Shown in pieces: positions 1,755 through 43,241 of a DNA stretch of 43,241 nt (positions are counted from its first letter, which is position 1; each line of letters starts with the position of its first letter). The translations under genes were made by a program, and so were the position numbers. Source of the stretch: Minisyncoccota bacterium (GTDB lineage Bacteria > Patescibacteriota > Minisyncoccia > Phycocordibacterales > JACRKE01). The stretch lies in NCBI GenBank assembly GCA_041660505.1, contig JBAZWG010000001.1, positions 675,768-719,008 of the forward strand. The letters run 5' to 3'. Below the pieces are notes generated by a model. It was given only the letters and a program-made list of their open reading frames with translations, ran no database searches and was not told where the DNA came from.

Positions 1755-3150
1755 GCATATTGGTTGGAGTCCCCTTGGTGTCGAACGGAGCGCCGGCGGC
1801 TATCACAACCTTGCCACCTATTTCACAGATACCATGCTTAAGGCAGTGGCTACGGACGAGATCGAAGGCTTCATCAATAGTCTTGAAGCGGGGGATGATT
1901 AGCGGATAACAGCCAAAAGAGAGCATCACTTTCTCCGACGCGTGTTCATTCGGGGTCATGGCGACGATAAGCCTGTTGGGTTTGAAACGCGATATCATCC
2001 TGGCGGTAAAGCCAGACTCTGTCAGGGCGACAATGAGCTCGGCGTTAATATCATGAGCAAGTTTTACCGCAGAACTGGTGATCGCGTCCGGGATCTCGGT
2101 GTTGTCTGATTTATATTGGAGATCGCGCTCGGGATAATTCTGTTCTATCTGTAGCGCGACGCGCGACATTACTCGCACCGCTTCGGCCGGATATTTGCCG
2201 AGTGCGGTTTCTTCCGAAAGCATCACGGCGTCGGTGCCGTCTATGATGGCATTGGCGATGTCTGACACTTCAGCGCGCGTTGGTACTGGTGAATTTATCA
2301 TCGACTCGAGCATCTGAGTCGCAGTGATGACGGGCTTGCCGGCGTCATTACACTTTCTGATTATCATCTTCTGGATCATTGGCACCATCTCGGCTGGTAC
2401 TTCTATCGCCAGGTCGCCACGCGCGACCATGACGCCATCAGAGAGGGCAATTATCGCATCGATATTGTCGACGGCCTCCGGCGTTTCGATCTTGGCGATT
2501 ATTCCCGCATCACTGCCGGCCACGTCTAGGATAGCGCGCAACTCGGCAATGTCGTCGGCGTGGCGGACGAATGAGAGTGCGAAGTAGGTAACTTTGTTAT
2601 TCAGGCCGAATTGCAGGTCTTCTTTGTCTTTTTCTGTAAGCGCGCTTATAGACAGGTTGGCGCCCGGCAGATTCACTCCGCGTCGGCCCTTAATTTCTCC
2701 GCCGACTATCACTTTACAATGCACTTCTTTGCCTTTAATACTCGTTACTTCCAAGCGCTTCTTTCCGTCATCCAAGAGTATCTGTCCGCCAACCTTTACT
2801 TCTTTCGGTAAGAGGGGATAATTAACGTAAGCACGAGTGGTGTCGCCGGTTATTTGTTCGGTCGTAAGTGTAAAGGGCTCGCCAGAGACAAGTTGTACGT
2901 GTTCAGTACTAAAATCTCCAATACGTATTTTGGGCCCGCTCAAGTCTTGAATAACCGCTATTGTTTTACGGGTCTTACTTGCAGCGGCTTTAACTGCCTC
3001 CAGGCGAACTTGATGCTCTTCGTGAGAGCCATGAGAGAAATTAAAACGGGCGACGTCGAGCCCGGCTTCTATGAGATTCGTCAGAATTTCCGTCTTCTCT
3101 GTTGCCGGCCCGATAGTGGCGACTATCTTAGTTTTTTTTCTGAGTTCCAT
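1735..3150 (-). CDS. pyk: pyruvate kinase
   Basis: 471 aa. Contains [20 protein letters not shown] and ATQMLESM motifs. Its 3' end overlaps the eno 3' end by 20 nt (convergent genes). Confidence 0.95.
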
Positions 3151-3270
3151 GACTACTTTTGACTGTTATTTATACCGTCTTATTTTACACCATGTATCCG
3201 CTCGCGTCTATACTAATTGTCAAATTTAGTGTATACTTTAGGCGGTTCTTTTATATTAAATAGTTCGCCT

Positions 3271-3867
3271 ATGACCGCAGATTACATCCATCATGGGGGG
3301 CACATAGAATTACACGGCCATAAGACAGTACCGAAGCAATACCGTGGCGCCCTAGAAGTCTCCAACCGCACATTCCCAAGTGCGCCGAATTTCTTCGTCG
3401 TTCAACTCACCAGGATGTCTGTTGTTATACTTTTTATGTCGGCGGTGTTCGTTTTAGGACCGTTATTGTACATTAGGCGACTCATCGGCGGATGGGAAGT
3501 GTCACTCATTTGTGCTGGTCTTATCCTCGGTATTCTTGTCGTCTTGTATGCAATTTACCTCAATTTCTGGATGCAGAAATTTAAGTTCAAGTTCTTTCCA
3601 GATTATATCGATGTGACAGCCGGAGTATTTCGCAGAATCGAGAGAAGCGTGCCGTTCTCCGGCATTCGGAATATCCGCGTCAATCAAGATATGTTTGAGC
3701 GGATGGGCAACGTCGCCCATATTCGGGTAGAGAATGCCATCACGGGAGGAGTGCTGGAGGGCGACCAATCAACCACACTTACTCTTATGGGTTTTCCTGT
3801 AGACGAGGCGTATCGGTTAGCAGATATTATCAACTCTTGCATTCGTCCTGAGCACAAAAATAAATAA
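3271..3867 (+). CDS. membrane protein with bacterial PH (bPH_2/YdbT-like) domain
   Basis: Two predicted TM helices followed by a segment resembling bPH_2 (DYIDVTAGVFRRIERSVPFSGIRNIRVNQDMFERMGNVAHIRVE). The track ORF starts at a non-ATG codon at 3217; the first ATG is at 3271. Confidence 0.55.
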   Translation: MTADYIHHGGHIELHGHKTVPKQYRGALEVSNRTFPSAPNFFVVQLTRMSVVILFMSAVFVLGPLLYIRRLIGGWEVSLICAGLILGILVVLYAIYLNFWMQKFKFKFFPDYIDVTAGVFRRIERSVPFSGIRNIRVNQDMFERMGNVAHIRVENAITGGVLEGDQSTTLTLMGFPVDEAYRLADIINSCIRPEHKNK

Positions 3868-3875
3868 TAGATCGC

Positions 3876-5813
3876 ATGTTAAAAAAGGACAAAAAAGAAA
3901 AAAAGAAGAATAACGGATCGAGCCCCCTCGAGCAGCTTTCTGGTCAGATTCTGATCGCGATCGTGGTTCTAATGATCTTCACCAGTGCTTATTCGCTATT
4001 TTCTCCTGAAAAAAAGACTCAAACGGAAGTGCCGGTATCTGACGTTGCGAAAGAAATAACGCTTGGTAATGTAACGAAGATAGCAGTAGAAGGCGATCAG
4101 CTTAATATCACGTTAAGGGATGGTAAGACAGAGTTCGCCAAAAAGGAACCGGGGAGCACCGTGTACGAAACAATCCAGGCTTACGGCGTAAGTCCCGACA
4201 GATTATCCGCTGTGCAGATAGAAGTGCTCGGCCCTTCCGGCTGGGACTTTTTCTTCGGTCTTGTGTTGCCCTACATTCCGCTTATAGCACTGATTCTACT
4301 TTTCATCTGGTTTCTTTCTAGGCAGGTTAAGGTATCTTCGATGCAGGCATTCTCTTTCGGCCAGTCCAAGGCGCGCATGATTGATCCTAACGATGAGAAG
4401 CAAAAGGTTAGATTTTCTGATGTGGCCGGTGCCAAGGAGGCAAAAGAAGAATTGATGGAGATTGTCGACTTTCTCAAGAACCCAAAGAAATTTCTGGATA
4501 TTGGCGCGCGTATTCCGAAAGGCGTAATACTAATGGGACCACCGGGCTCGGGTAAGACTCTGCTAGCGCGCGCAGTTGCCGGCGAGGCTGGCGTGCCGTT
4601 TTTATATTTATCAGGATCCGAATTCGTCGAAATGTTTGTGGGTGTCGGAGCTTCACGCGTACGCGACCTCTTTAATATGGCGAAGAAAGCGGCGCCGGCA
4701 ATAATATTCATAGATGAGATTGACGCAGTTGGCAGACATCGTGGTGGGGGTGTCGGTGGTGGCAATGATGAACGCGAACAGACGTTGAACCAAATTCTCG
4801 TTGAGATGGACGGCTTCGAGCCGAACGATAAAGTTATCGTGATGGCGGCGACGAACAGGCCGGATGTGCTTGACGTGGCACTGCTCCGCCCGGGCCGATT
4901 CGACCGCCGCGTTACTATCGACTTGCCGGACATTAACGATCGTGAAGCGATACTAAAAATTCATGGCGCCAAGATGCCGTTTGCTGAAGATGTTAAGCTC
5001 CGCACAATCGCCGAACGCACCCCGGGATTCTCCGGCGCCGACCTTGCGAACTTGATGAACGAGGCATCAATCCTCGCCGCTCGCGAAGAACGTACTAAGG
5101 TTGGCCAATTCGATCTTATAAGATCGGTAGAGAAAGTCATGCTCGGTCCAGAGCGCAAGAGCCACGTTCTCGGCCCGAAAGAGAAAGAGATAACCGCTTA
5201 TCACGAGATGGGCCACGCTCTTATCGCTTCTGTATTGGAATATTCCGATCCTGTGCACAAGGTGTCAATCATTTCTCGCGGTCGGGCGGCAGGGTATACT
5301 CTTAAACTCCCACTTGAAGAAAAAAGGATGCACACCAAGAAGCAGTTTATGGACGACATCGCGGTTTCCTTGGGCGGCTATACGGCAGAGCAGATGATAT
5401 TCGGTGATGTCACGACCGGAGCATCGAATGATATTGCTGTCGCTTCGGCGCTCGCAAGAGATATGGTGACGCGTTACGGTATGTCGGACAAAGTTGGCCC
5501 GGTGGATGTGGCCGGCGACGATCATATGCTCATTGCCGGCGGTAGAATTTCCGGCACTGGCGTATCCGAGAATACTGCCGCGATTATCGATTCTGAAGTT
5601 TCTAAAATCATGAACGATGCAGGAACGCGCGCCAAGAGGATTCTTGCCGAACACGAGAAGGCGCTCCACAATATGTCGAACGAGCTTACCAAGGTAGAGA
5701 CGATAGAACGCAAAGAGTTCGAAGACCTGCTCATCTTGAACGGCATCAAGCCGAAGAAACTCCCTGATAATCTGCCCGTGTCAGAACCGGTGGTTATAAC
5801 GCCGGAAACATAA
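3876..5813 (+). CDS. ftsH: ATP-dependent zinc metalloprotease FtsH
   Basis: 645 aa. Walker [12 protein letters not shown] segment [19 protein letters not shown], zinc motif HEMGHA, and an N-terminal TM pair. Confidence 0.97.
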
Positions 5814-5817
5814 AGCG

Positions 5818-6765
5818 ATGCGCGTCCGTTACGTGTACGCTTTAGTGTTCGTACTCATTGCCTCAATAGGCTTTTTCGGTTTGCAAGATGCCGGTGTCGT
5901 AAATCTAAGTTCCGCCTATTCCTATCTTGCCGGCATTTTCTTCGCCGAGAAGATTACTCCCGACGCGATACGTTCCGAATACGCAAATAGCTCGCTTAAA
6001 GTTCTGATTGTACCAGGCCATGAAAAAGACACCGGCGGTACGGAATATAAAAATCTCAAAGAGCGCGAACTCGTGCTCCAGCTCGGGAAGTATCTCCAGG
6101 AGGAGTTGAATAAAGACACTCATCTCACGTCTCAAATTACCAGAGACGGATCCGGCGACTTCACTCAATGGTTCAAAGATTACATAGCGGAGGGCAGTAT
6201 TGACGTTAAGGTTTTTACCACCTCGGCAAAAGTTAAGACTGCGCAAGCTATAATTCAAGGACTTTTCACGCCGACTACAGGGGTCGAACATAACACCGCG
6301 CCCGGTCCGACCGCGCTTGTTCTCTACGGCATCAATAAATATGCGAACGAACATGCTGTCGATTTGGTACTACACTTACATCTGAACGATTACCCGAGAC
6401 GATATACAAATCAGCCCGGTAAATATACCGGATTCGCGATTTATATACCAGAAAGTCAGCTTCCGAACACCCGTTCGAGTAAGGCCATAGGAGATAGTAT
6501 TGCCAGAGAATTGGCGCATATCGAGCCTAGGAGCAGTTATAAAAAAGAGCAGCCGGCCTTGGTCGAAGACCAAGAGCTCATCGCCATCGGCTCCTATGGT
6601 ACGCGCGATGGCGCGTCATTGCTTATCGAGTACGGCTATATTTATGAGAAGAAATTTACAGATCTCAAACTCCGGGACAAAACTTTGCGCGACCTGGCCC
6701 ACGCTACCTACCTCGGAATCGAAGATTACTTTAATCAAAAGGTCGCATTGTCTACGACGCGATAG
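5818..6765 (+). CDS. N-acetylmuramoyl-L-alanine amidase-like (Amidase_3) protein
   Basis: N-terminal TM/signal segment, then LIVPGHEKDTGG...ERELVLQLGKYL...LHLHLND...GFAIY, which resembles the Amidase_3 zinc-ligand layout. Confidence 0.6.
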   Translation: MRVRYVYALVFVLIASIGFFGLQDAGVVNLSSAYSYLAGIFFAEKITPDAIRSEYANSSLKVLIVPGHEKDTGGTEYKNLKERELVLQLGKYLQEELNKDTHLTSQITRDGSGDFTQWFKDYIAEGSIDVKVFTTSAKVKTAQAIIQGLFTPTTGVEHNTAPGPTALVLYGINKYANEHAVDLVLHLHLNDYPRRYTNQPGKYTGFAIYIPESQLPNTRSSKAIGDSIARELAHIEPRSSYKKEQPALVEDQELIAIGSYGTRDGASLLIEYGYIYEKKFTDLKLRDKTLRDLAHATYLGIEDYFNQKVALSTTR

Positions 6766-6786
6766 TTTGATAAGCTTACATCCTAA

Positions 6787-6859
6787 CCGCCCTTAGCTCA
6801 GTTGGTAGAGCAAGCGTCTTATACACGCTGGGTCCTTGGTTCGAGTCCAAGAGGGCGGA
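6787..6859 (+). tRNA. tRNA-Ile (anticodon UAU)
   Basis: Manual cloverleaf of 73 nt. Acceptor CCGCCCT/AGGGCGG, D arm GCTC..GAGC, anticodon stem AGCGT/ACGCT with loop CTTATAC, T arm CTTGG-TTCGAGT-CCAAG, discriminator A. No encoded CCA. Confidence 0.85.
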
Positions 6860-6875
6860 CTGATTTATTAAAGAA

Positions 6876-7460
6876 ATGAAGAAAATATTTCTGATACACG
6901 GATTTGAAGGTGAGCCGAACGGAGGATGGAGACCATGGCTCATGGGCGAACTTGCCAAATACGGCGTGTACGCTTGCGCTTTACCAATGCCATCGCCAGA
7001 AAAGCCTATCTGTAAAGACTGGCTTGCAATGATTGATTACTGCATCGGTAAACCGAATAAAGATACGTATTTAGTCGGCCACAGTCTGGGTGTGCCGGCG
7101 ATTCTAAGATATTTGGAAAAAACAAAAGTAAAAATAGGCGGTGCCGTTCTGGTCTCCGGACCTATTAAAACAAAAAAAGGATACAGGAACGGTAAACTCG
7201 ATACATTCTTTGCGCAACCTTTTGATTTAAAATTGATAAAAAGGAAAGCGAGCAAGTTCACTGTAATTCACGGAGACAACGATCAGCTTGTGGATATTAC
7301 GCAAGATGAGGAGCTAGCAAAATTGCTTTCGTGTGAATTGATAAAAGTGAAGAACGGAGGACACCTGAACGGATCAAGCGGCTTTCGTGAATTACCCCAG
7401 GCGCTTGTTGCTCTCAAAAAAATCGCGTCATTAAAACCGTTCAAGGGAACAATCTACTGA
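6876..7460 (+). CDS. alpha/beta hydrolase, YdeN/RBBP9-like serine hydrolase
   Basis: 194 aa. IFLIHGFEGEPNGGW, nucleophile elbow GHSLG, and a late HGDND..GH segment. Confidence 0.65.
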   Translation: MKKIFLIHGFEGEPNGGWRPWLMGELAKYGVYACALPMPSPEKPICKDWLAMIDYCIGKPNKDTYLVGHSLGVPAILRYLEKTKVKIGGAVLVSGPIKTKKGYRNGKLDTFFAQPFDLKLIKRKASKFTVIHGDNDQLVDITQDEELAKLLSCELIKVKNGGHLNGSSGFRELPQALVALKKIASLKPFKGTIY

Positions 7461-7466
7461 TATATT

Positions 7467-8204
7467 ATGAATGTAGTTGTATTGGCGGCGGGTGAGGGTA
7501 AACGCATGGCGGCAGACGGGATGCCGAAGGTTTTGGTACCCTTGAAGGGCAAGCCGCTTATTTCGTACGTGCTCGAGGCGATACGCGCTTCGGGCGCCGA
7601 TGCTCATCCGACATTGGTTATCGGTGTCCACGCCGAGCTCGTCGAAAAAACTCTAGGCACGCAATATAATTATGTCATCCAAGCAGAACGTCTCGGCACC
7701 GGCCACGCGGTACAATGCGCGCAGGCCTTGCTTGAGCCGGAGGCCGATGACGTGCTCGTGCTCTACGGCGATCATCCGCTTGTGTCGGCGAAGATGATAA
7801 AAGATTTGGTGCGTGCACATAAGTCCGGCAATAACACGCTCACAATGGCGACGACAACCGTCCCTGATTTTAAAGATTGGTACGCCGGCTTTTACGACTT
7901 CGGCAGGATTATTCGCGCCGAGGACGGCACTTTGGAAAAGATTATAGAGAAAAAAGACGCAACGACAGAAGAACTTGAAATAAAAGAAGTGAACCCAGGC
8001 TATTATTGTTTCAAGTCTGCCTGGCTCTGGCCGGCTCTCAAAAGCATAAAGAACGACAATGCGCAGAAAGAATATTATCTCACCGATTTATTGGCGCTTG
8101 CGGTAAAAGATGAAGAAAAAATCGGCAGTGTCGAGATAGACCCCGAAGAAGCGCTCGGTGTTAATACTAGAGAACAGCTTGCCCTTGTCGAGACCTTACT
8201 TTAG
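7467..8204 (+). CDS. sugar-phosphate nucleotidyltransferase (GlmU N-terminal-domain-like)
   Basis: 245 aa. Starts MNVVVLAAGEGKRM..PKVLVPLKGKP (the LAAGxGxR signature). No acetyltransferase hexapeptide domain is present. Confidence 0.75.
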   Translation: MNVVVLAAGEGKRMAADGMPKVLVPLKGKPLISYVLEAIRASGADAHPTLVIGVHAELVEKTLGTQYNYVIQAERLGTGHAVQCAQALLEPEADDVLVLYGDHPLVSAKMIKDLVRAHKSGNNTLTMATTTVPDFKDWYAGFYDFGRIIRAEDGTLEKIIEKKDATTEELEIKEVNPGYYCFKSAWLWPALKSIKNDNAQKEYYLTDLLALAVKDEEKIGSVEIDPEEALGVNTREQLALVETLL

Positions 8205-8211
8205 CCTCACT

Positions 8212-9324
8212 CTAACTTTTGTAAACTCCGAGCAGTTTATCGGTGCAGGATTCTATGCTGAAATCATTTGCTCTTAACTTAGCTTCTTTAGATTTCGCTG
8301 TGCGAATCTCCGAGTTATTCAAAAGCAGAGAAACTTTTTCCGCGAATTTCTCGAGATCCTCTGGGACAAGATAACCGCCATTGTCTCCAGCCAAGGTGTC
8401 TTCGACGCCGCTTGCTTTGACGGCCACGACCGGCGTACCGCAAGCGAGCGCTTCGAGTGTGGTTAAGCCTTGAGTCTCTGTCGTCGAGGCGGAGAGAAAT
8501 ACTTTGGCACCCGCGACCAGAGGGAAGAGTTCGCCATGCTTGATGAATCCTGTCAGATGAATCCGGTCATGTACAGGAGAAGCTTTGACTATCTCGCGCA
8601 ACTCATCTTCATACGGCCCGCCGCCGGCTATTATGAAATGAATGTCGGGGTGAGATTTCGAAACAAGCACAAAGGCCTTTACCAAAAACGCAAGATTCTT
8701 TTCTCTGCCTATCCGACTCATACTCATAATATAAGGGTAGGCTTTTGGTTGTGGTTGCAAATTATCGAAATCATCAAAATTGACCCCCGATGGCAAGACA
8801 TGCACAGGAACACTCACGCCATAATCCGTAAGCAGGCGTTTGACGGCGGTTGAGGGAGCGATGCAGGCATCGTGGCGGTTCATATAGATAGCCACGAACT
8901 TCTTTACGCCGTACTTGCTGATTATCTCCGGCGCAGGGAAGTAGTGCAGATATTCCTCAAGATTTGTGTGATAAGTGTGCACAGAACGGATACCGAAGAG
9001 TCGGGCCGCGCCGATACCAAGCAGGCCGATAGAACCCGGCGTATGGGTATGAATAACATCGAACTTCTCTTTCCTGATATTATTGACGAGTCGCGGGTCG
9101 TAAGGCAAGCTTAGTCTGAAGTCGGGGTAGGCGTAGTATGATAAAGAGGGAATGCGCGTGTTGTCCGGATGTGCAGTATGTTCTTCTCTAAAAAAAGCAT
9201 TCTTGGGCGAATATATCTTTACCGTGTGTCCGCGCTTCTCCAACTCGGCCGTGTAAGTCTTAATGGAGCTGACGATGCCGTCGATCTTGGGCTCGTAAGT
9301 GTCCGTGAACATCCCGATATGCAT
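8212..9324 (-). CDS. glycosyltransferase family 4
   Basis: The track ORF extends to 9426, but the homologous N-terminus begins at MHIGMFTDTYEPKIDGIV (ATG at 9324). The C-terminal part has an E-x7-E-like GT4 region (TETQGLTTLEALACGTPVV). Confidence 0.85.
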   Translation of the reverse strand: MHIGMFTDTYEPKIDGIVSSIKTYTAELEKRGHTVKIYSPKNAFFREEHTAHPDNTRIPSLSYYAYPDFRLSLPYDPRLVNNIRKEKFDVIHTHTPGSIGLLGIGAARLFGIRSVHTYHTNLEEYLHYFPAPEIISKYGVKKFVAIYMNRHDACIAPSTAVKRLLTDYGVSVPVHVLPSGVNFDDFDNLQPQPKAYPYIMSMSRIGREKNLAFLVKAFVLVSKSHPDIHFIIAGGGPYEDELREIVKASPVHDRIHLTGFIKHGELFPLVAGAKVFLSASTTETQGLTTLEALACGTPVVAVKASGVEDTLAGDNGGYLVPEDLEKFAEKVSLLLNNSEIRTAKSKEAKLRANDFSIESCTDKLLGVYKS

Positions 9325-9389
9325 GGGGTAATAATACCATAAAATCAGTGCCTTTTCTCGCCAATAGAATTCATGGTAGGATATACCAT

Positions 9390-9761
9390 ATGGCCAATAT
9401 AGAAGGCAATAATCAATCAGAAACAAAGTGGGCTATTTGGGGCCCGCTAGTGAATGGCGTAGAAACCTTTATAAGAGACGGCCATCTTGATGACATTAAG
9501 CCAGAATTACCAAAAGAACAACAAGGGTATTTGTCACATATCGGGCTACTGATGTTGGACTATCAGCCAGTTGTCGACAAAGGCGAGACAGAAGAAGAAA
9601 AAAGAGCTTCCGCAAGCATGCAGAGATATACGAAAGTCATTGCTGACATTTTCCAAAAAGAAAATCATAAAATCAGCGCAGAGGAACTCTCAGAATTAAA
9701 AACCGCTCTGGCCGAACTCCGCGAATCACTACGAGAGCTTGTTTCTACTCCAAATGGGTAA
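9390..9761 (+). CDS. hypothetical protein
   Basis: Open frame only; I recognise no motif. Likely ATG at 9390 (MANIEGNN...). Its last codons lie in the duplicated recG-tail segment 9745..9774. Confidence 0.45.
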   Translation: MANIEGNNQSETKWAIWGPLVNGVETFIRDGHLDDIKPELPKEQQGYLSHIGLLMLDYQPVVDKGETEEEKRASASMQRYTKVIADIFQKENHKISAEELSELKTALAELRESLRELVSTPNG

Positions 9762-38693: not shown

Positions 38694-40145
38694 ATGATAG
38701 ATCTAAAATCTCTCACAATTAAAAAAGCGCACGAATCTTTACTAAAAAAAGACTTTTCGGCCGTTGAGCTTCTTTCCGCCTATCGCGAGAATATAGAGAA
38801 GAGGAATAAAAAACTGAATGCTTATCTCGAAGTTTTCGACGATGCGACAGACCAAGCCAAATCGGTTGATGTCAAGATCGGGCGAGGCGACAAAATTTCT
38901 GATCTCGCCGGTATCCCGCTCGCCATTAAAGATATTATTTTATACAAAGGCCATCTGGCCACCGCGGCATCGAAAATATTGGCAGGTCATCACGCTGTAT
39001 ATGACTCAACGGTGGTAACGAAATTAAAAAATCAAGACGTAGTTATCACCGGCCGTACCAACATGGACGAGTTCGCCCACGGATCATCCGGCGAACATTC
39101 CGCCTATGGGCCAACACTTAATCCACTTGATGAGACGCGCGTACCGGGTGGGTCATCCAGTGGCTCCGGCGCGACTGTTGCCGCAGATATGGCACTTGTC
39201 TCGCTTGGGACAGACACGGGCGGGTCGGTGCGTTTACCGGCAAGTTATTGCGGGTTGGTCGGGCTCAAGCCGACATATGGTGCAGTTTCGCGCTATGGCA
39301 TCATCGCTATGGGGAGCTCGTTCGATCAAGTCGGACCAATAGGCAAGACTGTTGGCGACGCAGAGATTTTATTCAATGCGATAAAGGGTAAAGATTCGCT
39401 CGATTCTACAACGTATGATTATAATAATGTCGCAGTAAAGAATGACAAAAAGAAAATGCGCATCGGTATCCCTCGCGCATTCGTCGGCCCGCCTGCCGGC
39501 GAGGCAGGCAAGGGCGTCGAGCCAGATGTTATAGAAAAATTTAACGAAGCAGAGAAAAAGCTTCGCGAACTCGGACACGAGATAATAGATATAGACCTGC
39601 CGAATATCGACAAAGCGTTAGCAGTGTATTATATACTGATACCCGCAGAAATTTCGGCAAATCTCGCACGTTTCGACGGCGTGCGCTTCGGCTTGCGCGC
39701 AGACGGCAAGAACGGTATTGAAGATTATTTTAAGACGCGCGGAGCAGGCTTTGGTGCAGAAGCCAGAAGGAGAATTATGCTCGGAACTTATATACTCTCC
39801 CATGGTTATTACGACGCCTATTACAATAAAGCCGTTGCAGTAAGACAGATTATCAAGCAAGAATTCATCAACGTTTTTAAACAAGTAGACGCTTTCATTA
39901 CGCCTACCGGTATTTCGCCGGCTCCCAAACTCGGTGCCAATGCTAATGACCCGCTTGCCGAGTATCTCCTGGATATTTTTACCGTCTCCGCAAATGTCGC
40001 CCAAGTTTGCGCGATGTCTGTCCCGATGGGAACGGTTAAGCGAGAAGATAAAGATTTGCCGGTAGGACTGCATCTCACCGCTCCGCACTTCGCCGAATCA
40101 ACCTTATTCACACTCGGTAAGCAATTTTTGGGCGAAGTGGTATAA
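38694..40145 (+). CDS. gatA: Asp/Glu-tRNA amidotransferase subunit A
   Basis: 483 aa. Amidase signature GGSSSGSGATVA, and KDII...TNMDEFAHGSS. Confidence 0.95.
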   Translation: MIDLKSLTIKKAHESLLKKDFSAVELLSAYRENIEKRNKKLNAYLEVFDDATDQAKSVDVKIGRGDKISDLAGIPLAIKDIILYKGHLATAASKILAGHHAVYDSTVVTKLKNQDVVITGRTNMDEFAHGSSGEHSAYGPTLNPLDETRVPGGSSSGSGATVAADMALVSLGTDTGGSVRLPASYCGLVGLKPTYGAVSRYGIIAMGSSFDQVGPIGKTVGDAEILFNAIKGKDSLDSTTYDYNNVAVKNDKKKMRIGIPRAFVGPPAGEAGKGVEPDVIEKFNEAEKKLRELGHEIIDIDLPNIDKALAVYYILIPAEISANLARFDGVRFGLRADGKNGIEDYFKTRGAGFGAEARRRIMLGTYILSHGYYDAYYNKAVAVRQIIKQEFINVFKQVDAFITPTGISPAPKLGANANDPLAEYLLDIFTVSANVAQVCAMSVPMGTVKREDKDLPVGLHLTAPHFAESTLFTLGKQFLGEVV

Positions 40146-40152
40146 TTAGAGA

Positions 40153-40737
40153 ATGCCGGAATTTGTTTCGCTCAACCTCGAGTATCTGTTTTATCAGATC
40201 TATAAGTTTTTTTATTCGTTCACGCATAATACCCCAAGTTTGCCGGTCGTGCCGGCCCACACTTTTTCTTATTCTTCTGTATTTATTCTCGCTTCCATAT
40301 TAATTTCCGCATTGCTTATCTGGGCGATTGCTTATCTGCTGATCAAGACACGGCAGTATCATATCGAATACGAGTGGGCACTCTATAATCAATCGCAAGA
40401 GAATAAGGCGGCAACAACCAAAGAAGAAAATCCGAAGTGGAAGTCGGTCTTGTCTTTTGCCGAGTCGGATAATCCATCAGACAGGAAGGTGGCGATAATA
40501 GAAGCGGATAAATTACTCGACGATGCTTTGCAGGCGGGGAATATCCCGGGTGAGAACCTTGGCGAGAGACTTAAGAATTTCGATGCCAAAACCACTCCGT
40601 GGCTTGATGACGCCTGGGAGGCTCATAAAATCCGCAACCGCATAGCGCATGAGGCCGAGTTCGACCCGAACGTTCATGATATAAAGAAGACAATCGCAAG
40701 ATACGAAAGAGTCTTGCATGAACTCCGGGCGATATAG
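40153..40737 (+). CDS. hypothetical membrane-anchored protein
   Basis: One TM helix and a helical C-terminal domain containing AHKIRNRIAHE (an Rx4H pattern). Confidence 0.5.
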   Translation: MPEFVSLNLEYLFYQIYKFFYSFTHNTPSLPVVPAHTFSYSSVFILASILISALLIWAIAYLLIKTRQYHIEYEWALYNQSQENKAATTKEENPKWKSVLSFAESDNPSDRKVAIIEADKLLDDALQAGNIPGENLGERLKNFDAKTTPWLDDAWEAHKIRNRIAHEAEFDPNVHDIKKTIARYERVLHELRAI

Positions 40738-40904
40738 AATAGACCTTGCTCTTACTATTGCGGGGGCGGGAATTTCCTTCAACTAAAACTTTGCCGTCGC
40801 AAAGTTTTGTCTAGGCACCGCCTCGCAGAACTTTCTACTGAAAGTTCTAAGCTCCGGCGTTCAATTCCGCCACGAGCAAAGCAGTTTGCTCGTTCCCCGC
40901 AAAA

Positions 40905-40938
40905 AGCCAAAAACCGCCCAGAGGCGGTGTGGCTTTTT
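40905..40938. terminator. bidirectional hairpin terminator candidate downstream of tRNA(CAU)
   Basis: AGCC..CCGCC-CAGA-GGCGG..GGCT, flanked by an A run on one side and a T run on the other. Confidence 0.5.
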
Positions 40939-40939
40939 G

Positions 40940-41010
40940 TTGCGGGGGCGGGAATTGAACCCGCTTCTTCAGGTTATGAGCCTGACATGTTACCGTTTCA
41001 CTTCCCCGCT
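40940..41010 (-). tRNA. tRNA with anticodon CAU (Met or Ile2; identity not resolvable by eye)
   Basis: 71 nt on the minus strand. T arm GCGGG-TTCAATT-CCCGC and anticodon stem TCAGG/CCTGA with loop CTCATAA. The acceptor is 6 bp plus an A1:A72 mismatch. The D stem is weak (3 bp plus a mismatch) and position 8 is A. Confidence 0.65.
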
Positions 41011-41082
41011 GATGCGAATTCTAGCACAGATTGAGAAATTGTTCAAAACGTAGTAGAATAGCCAGACGTTCTTTTATAACAA

Positions 41083-41155
41083 GCCGTTGTAGCTCAGTTG
41101 GTAGAGCACGTCATTGGTAATGACGAGGTCAGCAGTTCAATCCTGCTCAACGGCT
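41083..41155 (+). tRNA. tRNA-Thr (anticodon GGU)
   Basis: 73 nt. Acceptor GCCGTTG/CAACGGC, anticodon stem CGTCA/TGACG with loop TTGGTAA, and T arm AGCAG-TTCAATC-CTGCT. Confidence 0.9.
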
Positions 41156-41289
41156 CCCGCAGGGAGTAGCGAAGCGTCCAGCAGGATTGAAGGCCGGACT
41201 GCGGCGGCAGGAGGCGGGGTCGCACAAATTTTCAGCAGAAAATTATGCGTGACCTATCCTGCTCAACGGCTCCCGTTTCTTGAAAATAA

Positions 41290-41365
41290 GCCATCTTAGC
41301 TCAGTTGGTAGAGCGACGGTATCGTAAACCGTAGGTCCCCGGTTCAAACCCGGGAGATGGCTCCA
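41290..41365 (+). tRNA. tRNA-Thr (anticodon CGU), CCA encoded
   Basis: Acceptor GCCATCT/AGATGGC, anticodon stem ACGGT/ACCGT with loop ATCGTAA, T arm CCCGG-TTCAAAC-CCGGG, discriminator T, then CCA. Confidence 0.9.
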
Positions 41366-42905
41366 GTTTTGTAGAAAAAGATACAGAAGCACCCAAAGCG
41401 TGGGCGGCACGAAGTGCCGCCCATTGGTTTTCGCCTGATTTTGTGGGGGGATTCGGAAAATTCGGCGCGCTTGCGCGCACTAATTTGTTTTGGAGGAGGA
41501 GGTTCGAGCCAAAGATTTCTTTGGCAGCAACCTTTTTAGCAAAAAGGTTGCTATCCAATGCAATTTTTTCCATATTTCCCGCGTCCTTTATCCACTTTTC
41601 CATCGGTTCGAGCCAATGTTTCTGCTTTTGTTGATTACGAGATATTTCCTCCTCCAGCGACTTTTTTTCGGATAGTAATTTTGATTTTTCAGCACGATAT
41701 ACTTCCTTGTCTATGTCTTGGTCTAAATAGCCGTCTAAAAGTCGCTGGAGCTTCGCTGTGATATCCGTAATCATTTTTTCGTTCTTTTCAACAAAAGCAG
41801 AAACGGATTGGGCGGATTCCACTTTGTCTTTTTCAAGTCTTCCGTTTAGATAGTCCGCCCAATCTTGTGGCAAAGAAACTTTTTGAAGAAGTGATGAAAT
41901 TTGCGCATCCAAAGATTCTTGGCGAATACAGGGTTCAGGACATTTTTGCGTTTTCGATTTCTTGGTGCAGTGATAGTAAGTGTAGAAATGTTGCATGCCG
42001 TTGAGCTGGGTCTTCACCCTGTATTCGCCAGTGATTTGCATTCCACATGACGCGCAAGAAAGGAGTCCGCAATATGCTTGCGGTTCATTTTTCTGTTTGT
42101 GTCGCGGACGACTTCTTCTTTTCATCACTTCTTGCACAAGGTCCCAAAGTTTCTTTGCCACTATTGGCTCGTACCTGCCTTCGTATATTTCGCTGTTATA
42201 CCGAAAATGTCCGTAGTAGAACGGATTGGAAAGAATAAAGGTCGCGCGGGAAATGTGGATTCTCTTTCCATTTTTTGCAACGAGGTGGTTGCGCTCAAAA
42301 TATTCTCCGATACCTTGCAGTGTTTGGTTGCCTTGCGCGTACAGCTCAAACGCGTGGCGAATAATCGGCGCGGTCTTTTTATCCACTATCACAGTTTTTG
42401 TTCGAGAGTCGTTGATATATCCCACAGGAGCGAGACTTGGATATTCGCCGCGCCGTACCTTTTGGCGCAACCCTCGTTTCGTATTTTCGGAAAGAGAGTC
42501 CACATAATATTTGCTTTGCCCGAAAGCCATATTCAACATGAATTTTCCTTGCGATGTGCTATCGCACCAAAAAGTGGGAAACTTCAAGCTCGCAAGTTTT
42601 TCTGTGTCGAGGAGGTAAATTACTCGTCCACCATCAACAGAATTGCGAGCGAGACGATCCGGATGCCAAGCGAGAATATTTCCGCCGAGTTCTTCAATAT
42701 CGTCTAACATTTTATTAAACATCGGACGACCGGGAATTTTCGCAGATTGTTTTTCCACAATCTCGGCGGATATTTCAATATTCTCTCGCTTGGCATAGTC
42801 TCGCAATTCTTGGAGTTGTGCTTCAATCGAAAGAACCTGCTTGTCCTCAACATCAGTAGACTTGCGAGCATACAAAAAGAATTTTTTGGGAGAGACATTT
42901 TCCAT
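41301..42905 (-). CDS. large serine recombinase
   Basis: From the ATG at 42905 (MENVSPKKFFLYARKSTDVEDKQ..., with the catalytic Ser in YARKST). It also has HPDRLARN, a recombinase domain, a Zn ribbon (CASCG...HCTKK..C..C) and a coiled coil. The ORF stays open through IR-L and the antisense of the tRNA, so the true 3' end is uncertain. Confidence 0.85.
   Translation of the reverse strand: MENVSPKKFFLYARKSTDVEDKQVLSIEAQLQELRDYAKRENIEISAEIVEKQSAKIPGRPMFNKMLDDIEELGGNILAWHPDRLARNSVDGGRVIYLLDTEKLASLKFPTFWCDSTSQGKFMLNMAFGQSKYYVDSLSENTKRGLRQKVRRGEYPSLAPVGYINDSRTKTVIVDKKTAPIIRHAFELYAQGNQTLQGIGEYFERNHLVAKNGKRIHISRATFILSNPFYYGHFRYNSEIYEGRYEPIVAKKLWDLVQEVMKRRSRPRHKQKNEPQAYCGLLSCASCGMQITGEYRVKTQLNGMQHFYTYYHCTKKSKTQKCPEPCIRQESLDAQISSLLQKVSLPQDWADYLNGRLEKDKVESAQSVSAFVEKNEKMITDITAKLQRLLDGYLDQDIDKEVYRAEKSKLLSEKKSLEEEISRNQQKQKHWLEPMEKWIKDAGNMEKIALDSNLFAKKVAAKEIFGSNLLLQNKLVRASAPNFPNPPTKSGENQWAALRAAHALGASVSFSTKLEPSPGFEPGTYGLRYRRSTN
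41361..41507. repeat. IR-L, left copy of a perfect 147-bp inverted repeat
   Basis: Checked base by base against the reverse complement of 42973..43119 with 147/147 identity. It starts in the last 5 nt (CTCCA) of tRNA-Thr(CGU). Confidence 0.97.
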
Positions 42906-42911
42906 ATACGC

Positions 42912-42941
42912 ATTATAGCAAAAATTCTTTTTGTATGGCAA
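42912..42941 (-). promoter_or_regulatory. sigma70-like promoter candidate for the recombinase, possibly leaderless
   Basis: On the minus strand: TTGCCA, 18 nt, TATAAT, 6 nt, then ATG. It lies inside the IR-bounded core. Confidence 0.35.
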
Positions 42942-42972
42942 AGCAAATAATTAGGAAAAATTGCATTGGATT

Positions 42973-43119
42973 TCGAACCTCCTCCTCCAAAACAAATTAG
43001 TGCGCGCAAGCGCGCCGAATTTTCCGAATCCCCCCACAAAATCAGGCGAAAACCAATGGGCGGCACTTCGTGCCGCCCACGCTTTGGGTGCTTCTGTATC
43101 TTTTTCTACAAAACTGGAG
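42973..43119. repeat. IR-R, right copy of the 147-bp inverted repeat
   Basis: Exact reverse complement of 41361..41507. The track ORF 42961..43164 is merely the duplicated recombinase 3' coding sequence. Confidence 0.97.
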
Positions 43120-43241
43120 TGTCTTTATGACTTCGCTCGAACCTACTTTATCAAAAATTCCTAACCAATGGAAGCCCGCCCCGCCACCGCCTCGTAGAGC
43201 CTCGGCGGACACCAAAGAAAAATGTTCCTTGCTTTTCGGAT

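Follow-up and report, generated by a model that had tools for sequence, protein, structure and literature searches.

A tRNA-end element of Patescibacteria that probably carries its attachment site within the 3′ end of its own serine integrase gene

Introduction

Near the end of a 43,241-nt stretch of Patescibacteria DNA (Minisyncoccota bacterium, contig JBAZWG010000001.1), a gene for a large serine recombinase is bracketed by a perfect inverted repeat that begins within the CCA end of a tRNA-Thr gene. What kind of element is built in this way, and where does it end? A preliminary description, drawn from the letters alone, took the two repeat copies as the bounds of a 1759-bp element, which might be a self-inverting switch or a new class of terminal-repeat element. 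Here we compared the locus with its relatives in genome and metagenome collections. We propose, with a probability of about 0.72, that the recombinase is the integrase of an integrated element of 3.4–9.1 kb, of which the attachment site lies in the 3′ end of the integrase gene itself, the crossover falls at tRNA positions 72–73, and a second, inverted copy of the site is retained.

The whole stretch is termed the window, and all coordinates are positions in it unless a relative is named; it ends 122 nt past the right repeat copy. The locus set (n = 167) comprises 80 loci from GTDB species representatives, 80 from JGI metagenomes and a few from exact-protein look-ups, the fetched loci being drawn from at least 596 matches in each of the two collections. 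CPR denotes candidate-phyla-radiation bacteria (Patescibacteria). We denote the repeat arm as X, a 14-codon tail next to it as F, the conserved DNA beyond F as Z, and the 2 nt at the repeat edge as NN; loci in which the integrase gene runs into a tRNA are in state A. The closest relatives looked up are L083, L085 and L086, with proteins 87–91% identical to that of the window, and L084 (86%).

Results

The locus in the window is composed of the following features.

41290–41365, plus strand: tRNA-Thr(CGU), the host target (ARAGORN; Rfam tRNA, 67 bits), whose T-arm and acceptor 3′ strand would form the outer attB-type arm
41301–42905, minus strand: reading frame of the large serine recombinase, 534 aa, with ATG at 42905, stop at 41301–41303 and matches to domain profiles
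41361–41362, no strand: putative crossover dinucleotide CT at tRNA positions 72–73, with its partner AG at 43118–43119, placed from the repeat edge and covariation
41361–41507, no strand: left X arm, encoding recombinase residues 467–515 and joined to the tRNA in an attR-like junction; same layout in 122 of 167 loci
41400–41424, plus strand: G+C-rich hairpin with a T-run, read as an intrinsic terminator just 3′ of the tRNA; mirror copy at 43080–43056 on the minus strand
41508–41552, minus strand: 45-nt segment of the gene copy only, with two small hairpins, encoding part of the invariant NLFAKKVAAKEIFG block and missing from the promoter-side copy
42912–42941, minus strand: recombinase promoter, TTGCCA-18-TATAAT, with an extended −10 TG
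42956–43119, no strand: right (promoter-side) copy, a 16-nt inner piece plus the 147-nt X arm; putative inner arm of an intact internal attachment site
43120–43164, plus strand: segment F, 14 codons (CLYDFARTYFIKNS) and a stop, in frame with the right repeat copy; TCGAAC at 43137–43142
43165–43241, plus strand: start of Z, element DNA that forms a second inverted repeat with F in relatives and runs off the window end

Recomputation and blastn agreed that 41361–41507 is the exact reverse complement of 42973–43119 (147 nt, 100%), with 1465 nt between the arms, as the preliminary description had stated. The further 16-nt homology it had seen is located at 41553–41568 and 42956–42971, separated from the 147-nt arms by 45 nt on the left and 1 nt on the right. 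In blastn, the 43 kb of the window held no other match to the 147-nt repeat besides the two arms, and a perfect repeat of this length cannot have arisen by chance. The right arm is a duplicate of recombinase residues 467–515, that is, of the last ~49 codons described before. The 45-nt piece is precisely missing from the promoter-side copy in the window, L083, L085 and L086, all four having the deletion junction GGTTCGAAATCCAATGC in common. On the tRNA side, the last 5 nt of tRNA-Thr(CGU), CTCCA, fall inside the left repeat copy, and among the five tRNAs of the window only this one has an encoded CCA; ARAGORN, Rfam and a comparison of the tRNAs agree with the earlier reading on both points. The terminal CCA (41363–41365) is best read as supplied by the element. 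An Rfam scan of 40000–43241 returned nothing but three tRNAs.

The same pair of inverted repeats surrounds the gene in 122 of the 167 loci, with a median length of 126 nt (range 46–219 nt) and 79–100% identity. Identity is 100% in 40 of the 102 pairs uncut by a contig end, 95–99.9% in 38, 90–95% in 15 and lower in 9. These loci come from independent metagenome-assembled genomes (MAGs) and metagenomes built with different assemblers, and contigs of 50–550 kb span both copies. A converging tRNA shares its last ~5 nt with the 3′ arm in 80 loci, and these tRNAs represent 13 amino-acid classes and 27 anticodons. The suggestion of a mobile element at a tRNA CCA end is thus well founded, the tRNA standing at the same place in 80 relatives.

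The sequence beyond the right repeat copy changes the picture of where the element ends. Immediately outside this copy, and in frame with it, segment F follows the pattern x-[LIF]-Y-[ND]-x-[AV]-R-T-[YHF]-F-x-x-x-stop in at least 74 loci. Its entropy is 0.81, 0.48 and 1.04 bits at the first, second and third codon positions, and synonymous codons are exchanged (CGA, AGA and CGC for Arg; ACC, ACT and ACA for Thr). The variability by codon position together with the synonymous changes indicates that F codes for a protein tail that is kept by purifying selection. F forms the real C-terminus of two database proteins, P0099 and P0093, encoded on contigs of 49 and 58 kb. The best reading of these sequences is that F is both the native C-terminal tail of the recombinase and the outer attP-type arm of an internal site. 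Beyond F, relatives residing at different tRNAs align from 150–360 nt past F, within Z, through X, and the homology stops at the tRNA; the aligned unit between related loci measures ~2.0–2.1 kb. The 1759-bp element bounded by the two repeat copies is consequently not what the comparison yields, as F and Z lie outside the right copy and relatives add a second repeat and 1–7 kb of cargo.

This second inverted repeat, composed of F and Z (87–414 nt), is found in 23 loci, and in 19 of the 39 state A loci with more than 3 kb of flank. It abuts the X repeat and brackets 1.0–6.9 kb. In loci that have it, three sites can be distinguished: S1, where a flank is joined to NN-F-Z; S2, an inverted intact X-NN-F-Z; and S3, where X-NN is joined to the tRNA. 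The unit between the outermost sites is 3.4–9.1 kb. In sequence, the S1 flank and X share only 3–7 nt, and the 2 nt at tRNA positions 72–73 covary. The far flank at S1 starts with the complement of CCA in three of five inspected loci (L052, L078 and L028).

The clearest boundaries are seen in L084, a 93-kb contig with the order tRNA-Thr(CGU), ~35 nt, S1, 6.5 kb, S2, integrase and S3 on tRNA-Thr(GGU), in which the insertion boundary lies 6.9 kb beyond the promoter-side repeat. Removing 8.75 kb, from S1 through S3, leaves ...GGCT-CCCGCATG... followed by tRNA-Thr(CGU), that is, a tRNA-Thr(GGU)-tRNA-Thr(CGU) tandem. The rebuilt junction agrees with the tandem as it stands uninterrupted in L086 (...GGCT-CCCGATG...) and with the trailer that follows tRNA-Thr(GGU) in the window. 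Removal of the block thus restores the tRNA, its trailer and its neighbour, which shows that the whole block is an insertion at a tRNA 3′ end.

The bracketed segment carries cargo. L010 at tRNA-Val(CAC) and L013 at tRNA-Lys(UUU) hold ~83% identical elements with a common HaeII-type restriction endonuclease and Vsr in opposite orientations, together with a C5 methylase fragment in L010 and an OLD-family (AAA_15 + TOPRIM) nuclease in L013. Their bracketed segments are as follows.

L010, 551–3132, strand not given: cargo stretch
L013, 330–3470, strand not given: cargo stretch

Common cargo at different tRNAs and in opposite orientations indicates that the segment travels with the integrase and can be flipped. 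In L084 the cargo (2976–9466) is a diversity-generating retroelement with RVT_1, bAvd and an Lcl_C target; other relatives carry ABC transporter, radical SAM, NUDIX/CYTH, nucleoside hydrolase and guanylate-kinase fusion genes. Nothing pointed to a temperate phage: the examined 1–7 kb of cargo contained no virion genes, and IMG/VR gave one 42%-identical match among 2.9 million contigs.

Where, then, does recombination take place at the tRNA? Of 69 loci, 46 lose the repeat identity 2 nt past the antisense CCA, with 12 others extending 1 nt and 5 others 2 nt further, minorities that chance extension predicts. The edge dinucleotide NN (tRNA positions 73 and 72) covaries with the tRNA in both copies, appearing as TGGTG, TGGAG, TGGTA and TGGCT; TGGTA occurs at three loci, two of them seen as tRNA-Glu, and TGGCT at tRNA-Asn. 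These patterns make it probable that the crossover lies at positions 72–73. The earlier remark that prophage att sites are short and non-identical still holds for the probable crossover site proper, which is centred on 2 nt at the outer edge of the repeat. Flanking this site, the tRNA arm has the T-loop motif TCGAA at a distance of 13 nt from the edge (43 of 64 loci), and F has xCGAAC at 17 nt (46 of 64). In the LI integrase system, attB has its zinc-ribbon-domain motif 5 bp closer to the centre than attP does (PMC3783163). By analogy, the 4-nt offset suggests that the tRNA arm is a host-type half-site and F an element-type half-site.

The repeat arm itself contains a conserved hairpin. A perfect stem of at least 7 bp was detected in the X arm of 80 of 114 relatives, ~59–66 nt from the repeat edge in most of the loci listed, with 38 different stem sequences that read as compensatory change. 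The loop is usually UUCG on the mRNA-sense strand. W495 and L498, the sole conserved residues of that protein region, are encoded by the hairpin, which probably reflects conservation of the nucleic acid rather than of the protein. The hairpin probably terminates the tRNA transcript and shields the core against read-in from both sides.

Profile searches of the 534-aa product matched Resolvase (PF00239; E 1.8e-21, residues 10–154), Recombinase (PF07508; E 8.5e-15) and Zn_ribbon_recom (PF13408; E 1.7e-6, 28.7 bits against a cut-off of 25.3). Residues Y12, R14, K15, S16 and T17 and cysteines C279, C284, C287, C313 and C322 are invariant in 32 aligned recombinase sequences. With a resolvase catalytic domain bearing the serine motif, then a Recombinase domain, then a zinc ribbon, the protein is by its sequence a large serine recombinase, as first described. 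The promoter pointed out earlier scores 11/12, and its −10 ends 6 nt before the ATG. The same spacing is present in L083, L085 and L086, and in 9 of the 16 more distant loci, the only ones of these in which it could be scored; it suggests a leaderless integrase mRNA.

The reading frame has no stop inside the repeat and runs through the antisense tRNA to the TGA of the antisense D-loop, its last 20 residues, EPSPGFEPGTYGLRYRRSTN, being a translation of antisense tRNA-Thr. A protein search returned thousands of ~530-aa homologues with no name or generic names, one of them from a Ca. Nomurabacteria MAG, and many of the contigs bearing them are only 1.7–2.5 kb long. When the C-termini were aligned, a check that the preliminary description had proposed, most of 31 homologues were found to end in ...LEPxxGxEPxTxxLxxxCSTN, which is the antisense translation of different tRNAs. 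Such spurious C-termini arise because the integrated gene lost its own stop, so that gene callers read through.

Efforts to extend the window came to little. The contig ends of L083, L085 and L086 fall 0–135 nt outside the same repeat, as expected if F and Z are repeated, and the cargo of the window is thus not predictable from them. A look-up of contigs encoding the neighbouring 194-aa protein gave one 7-kb contig only, which stops in the tRNA cluster.

That cluster bears further marks. Between tRNA-Thr(GGU) and tRNA-Thr(CGU) is a 116-nt insert (41159–41289), on both sides of which the tRNA-Thr(GGU) 3′ end and trailer are directly and perfectly repeated over 20 nt (41140–41159 and 41256–41275). 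It contains an inverted T-arm fragment at 41175–41191 and 42 nt that are 90% like the Z-like region upstream of the L082 recombinase. An earlier element at tRNA-Thr(GGU), a site that is occupied in L084 and L041, may have left the insert as its scar. In addition, two copies of the tRNA-Met 3′ end (minus strand) stand 182 nt apart (40751–40774 and 40933–40956), with a stray T-arm/acceptor-like fragment, GTTCAATTCCGCCACGAGCAA, at 40859–40879 between them. From these traces the cluster looks like a repeatedly used integration hot spot. Some genomes have two or more cassettes in series (L082, 3642–8355; L079; L053, 2–402). In L082, a common F+Z repeat joins two recombinase genes, every outer side bears an F-type arm, and a gene for a reverse transcriptase is located close by. 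The serial cassettes suggest that the elements insert into one another's sites.

Discussion

The anatomy of the locus and its relatives enables us to propose a putative model for the life of the element. The attachment site would lie inside the coding sequence and consist of X (~49 duplicated codons), the 2-nt crossover and F (14 codons plus stop). Recombination of this site with the 3′ end of a tRNA gene at positions 72–73 would fuse the gene end X to the antisense tRNA, the element giving the tRNA its CCA and a terminator hairpin, and F with the rest of the element would land at the far junction beside the old trailer of the tRNA. A second, inverted copy of X-crossover-F-Z would stand immediately before the integrase promoter. 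Once integrated, the element would have its promoter and integrase core between the X arms and its cargo between the F+Z arms. For the window, 41361–41507 with the tRNA would be the attR-like junction, 42973–43164 and beyond would be the internal site, and the cargo and the attL-like junction would lie to the right of 43241. We regard this anatomy of an integrated element as highly probable.

The free form, for which we see even odds, would be a circle with two repeats in the order [X-NN-F-Z] - cargo - [Z′-F′-NN′-X′] - promoter - core. Integration via the copy downstream of the gene would yield exactly the observed order. Conservative recombination cannot make duplications of 100–400 nt, so both copies of X-NN-F-Z would have to pre-exist in the free element. 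A free form with a single attP, gaining its second copy later, was rejected on the same ground, and also by the X′ copy standing directly upstream of the promoter in every locus.

Several points weigh against this model. For none of the family members studied did we find a free circle, an empty site or an excision junction, and the far junction and the cargo of the window's own element lie outside the window. To keep an intact attP-type site in the integrated element is unusual for serine integrases and should be hazardous among many tRNA targets. The motif shift between the arms is 4 nt and not the 5 of the LI integrase, and a dyad-symmetric motif matching F, sought in the X arm, appeared as weak [GA]AC at 10–12 and TCG-like runs only. 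Some loci have housekeeping-like cargo (HisRS-, ProRS-, GuaA- and Alr-like genes), so that the segment could be trapped host DNA there. The opposite orientation of the core is represented by five contigs that end inside X, plus L081 and L082. Finally, the family can yield artefacts, as seen from L095 below. As to empty sites, no matches came from a tblastx comparison of all loci with the cargo and flanks of L078, L052, L053 and L055, the species representatives being too distant from one another. No candidate directionality factor was recognised in the variable cargo.

L095 (Ga0210051_1056745, 2532 nt) has a perfect 476-nt inverted repeat at both ends, running from X into a membrane-protein-like flank that is not F. 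It was considered as a free form and rejected, since the repeat continues into the non-F flank as a palindromic mis-path would. In all likelihood the X repeat led the assembly into a palindrome here, and the contig is a caution for short contigs of the family.

Does the core invert? If the integrase or RecA recombined the two X arms, the core would be inverted and the gene would regain its native F tail, and such a reconnection is plausible. The tail swap expected by the preliminary description thus holds as anatomy, with the addition that the alternative tail, CLYDFARTYFIKNS, is the conserved native one; the evidence that flips occur is weak. The gene points into the tRNA in 80 loci and the other way in five contigs (L011, L012, L037, L048 and L099), all of which end inside X; L081 and L082 have F-type arms on both sides and no tRNA. 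The 80:5 bias possibly reflects the site copy used for integration, an F-tailed active enzyme that is unstable beside an intact site, or a rare flip. We doubt that the flip works as a functional switch. In mycobacteriophage BPs, immunity depends on integration (PMC4557955), and one may speculate by analogy that the tail swap ties the activity or stability of the enzyme to the integration state. A broader picture, which we offer tentatively and at less than even odds, is that miniature elements throughout CPR enter the 3′ end of essentially any tRNA gene with matching positions 72–73, a single serine integrase recognising the universal T-loop and acceptor; the enzyme would regulate itself, in that integration would cut the tail and a flip via the spare inverted site would restore it and re-arm the element for excision or further moves, and a circle like that of the 2-micron plasmid would swap cargo cassettes between its two inverted sites.

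The most durable of the other explanations is that the integrase mainly flips its own gene between the X arms, as a dedicated switch of the Hin/Gin kind that alternates between F tail and tRNA tail or toggles antisense transcription into the tRNA. The inner arms of the inverted sites are identical, so a flip would regenerate the same two sites. Further, 40 of the 102 pairs are perfectly identical, both orientations of the cargo occur, some contigs have the tRNA on the promoter side, and F is under purifying selection though disconnected from the gene in most assemblies. Nevertheless, the ~80:5 orientation, with all five minority contigs ending inside X, and the 24 of 102 pairs below 95% identity, which are not homogenised, speak against a switch. 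Canonical serine integrases do not recombine attP with attR (PMC3783163), and the tRNA diversity, the cargo and the L084 boundaries require integration anyway. We therefore hold such a switch to be improbable.

A second possibility is that the segment between the F+Z repeats is host DNA, the mobile unit being X′-promoter-core-X with one F-Z (~2.1 kb) and the second F-Z a solo remnant. The ~2.0–2.1 kb that align between related loci fit this proposal, as do the housekeeping look of some cargo, its difference between the close relatives L053 and L055, and the lack of a second F-Z copy within 3–4 kb in about half of the long-flank loci. However, once 8.75 kb are taken out of L084 the tRNA tandem and its natural trailer are whole again, three of five loci have the CCA complement at the start of the far flank, L010 and L013 share cargo at different tRNAs, and conservative site-specific recombination cannot duplicate 100–400 nt of F-Z. 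With these results in hand the proposal is very improbable.

Still less credit is due to an autonomous 1.76-kb transposon (41361–43119) with 147-nt terminal inverted repeats that targets tRNA CCA ends. Although the repeats enclose a single recombinase gene and its promoter, they are not outermost with host DNA on both sides: conserved coding F and then Z lie outside the promoter-side repeat in at least 74 loci, whereas outside the left repeat only the tRNA is conserved. The L084 boundaries, 6.9 kb further out than that repeat, disagree as well, and a serine recombinase acting on inverted sites inverts and cannot excise. The many homologue contigs of only 1.7–2.5 kb, which would suit such a transposon, are an assembler outcome at repeats longer than k.

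An assembly fold-back, with the right copy and everything beyond mis-joined at the contig end, was a worry of the preliminary description and is brought to mind by the 122 nt left before the window end, by L095 and by the breaks of three of the four closest relatives looked up within 0–135 nt of the same place, but it has next to no chance of being correct, since the 24 relatives with copies below 95% identity (79–95%) cannot be fold-backs, contigs of 50–550 kb read through both copies, and the flank past the right copy is the F conserved in at least 74 other loci and not the reverse complement of the tRNA flank.

An integrated element with its attachment site in the integrase gene end, if correct, would be a natural example of integrase remodelling that depends on the integration state. 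The genomes of CPR bacteria are tiny and few mobile elements have been recognised in them, and the present family is abundant (at least 596 matches in each of two collections). With cargo spanning defence systems such as HaeII restriction-modification with Vsr, a diversity-generating retroelement, transporters and nucleotide salvage, it may be a main route of gene exchange in CPR. The generic tRNA 3′ end is a target present in every genome, which possibly makes these enzymes useful for genome engineering. The repeats also explain why CPR contigs frequently end at tRNA clusters, and many database "recombinases", to judge from most of the 31 aligned, end in a spurious …GxEPxT…CSTN peptide.

How does the proposed element compare with known systems? 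Like the large serine integrases (phiC31, Bxb1, A118/LI and TP901-1, and also TnpX and CcrAB), it has Resolvase, Recombinase and zinc-ribbon domains, and its putative attP × attB recombination would give two hybrid junctions, with an apparent 2-nt crossover. As with LI integrase, the motif is nearer the centre in the host arm, by 4 nt here and 5 bp there (PMC3783163). Unlike them, the CPR element would have its attachment site within the 3′ coding region of the integrase; it targets the 3′ end of almost any tRNA and not one locus, and keeps a second, inverted, intact site when integrated, with no directionality factor evident in the cargo. It is also tiny (3.4–9.1 kb) and nearly absent from viral contigs. 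The protein itself is an ordinary large serine recombinase.

The inverted sites around the recombinase gene, the adjacent segments with abutting repeats and the C-terminal ends that a flip would exchange recall the Hin/Gin/Cin/Pin invertases and the shufflons. Enzymes of the Hin/Gin type have ~190 aa, a C-terminal helix-turn-helix and 26-bp sites with an enhancer, in contrast to the 534 aa with Recombinase and zinc-ribbon domains, the 100–400-nt repeats and the one dominant orientation seen here. IS607-type elements have an N-terminal DNA-binding domain, no long repeats and little target specificity; in this family the catalytic domain starts at residue 10 and targeting of tRNA 3′ ends is strict.

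In the yeast 2-micron plasmid, FLP acts on FRT sites within 599-bp inverted repeats. The putative free circle of the CPR element would similarly have two unique segments and two inverted repeats, each with a recombinase site and with the recombinase in one segment. Isomers with either segment flipped are seen (L010 versus L013). It differs in its serine instead of tyrosine recombinase, in a repeat that overlaps the recombinase coding end and in chromosomal integration, and no replication gene was seen.

The intP gene of Mx8 and the integrase genes of the SSV1 type contain attP, so that integration, which takes place in tRNA genes, alters the C-terminus of the product. In these systems and in BPs (PMC4557955), as would be the case here, integration replaces the 3′ end of an element gene; in CPR a 14-residue tail would give way to an arbitrary antisense-tRNA peptide, and this replacement could make the activity or stability of the enzyme depend on the integration state. 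Those systems use tyrosine integrases, BPs also altering its repressor, and are not known to keep an inverted spare of the native 3′ end.

Large serine recombinases, integration at tRNA genes and attP inside a gene are each already known. We found no description of the family in the literature on CPR/Saccharibacteria serine recombinases, on tRNA-targeting elements with large serine recombinases or on attP inside int, nor of its combination of features: a putative site in the coding end of a serine integrase, a probable 72–73 crossover with donated CCA, many tRNAs as targets and a retained inverted second site. Tycheposons are reportedly small cargo-carrying elements at tRNA 3′ ends in streamlined genomes, with cargo including defence and nutrient-related genes. 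In classical tRNA islands, the tRNA 3′ end is repeated directly on both sides and the integrase is mostly of the tyrosine kind; unlike these, the CPR element shares only 2 nt, plus the CCA, with its target, is built on inverted repeats, and has an integrase gene that spans the site.

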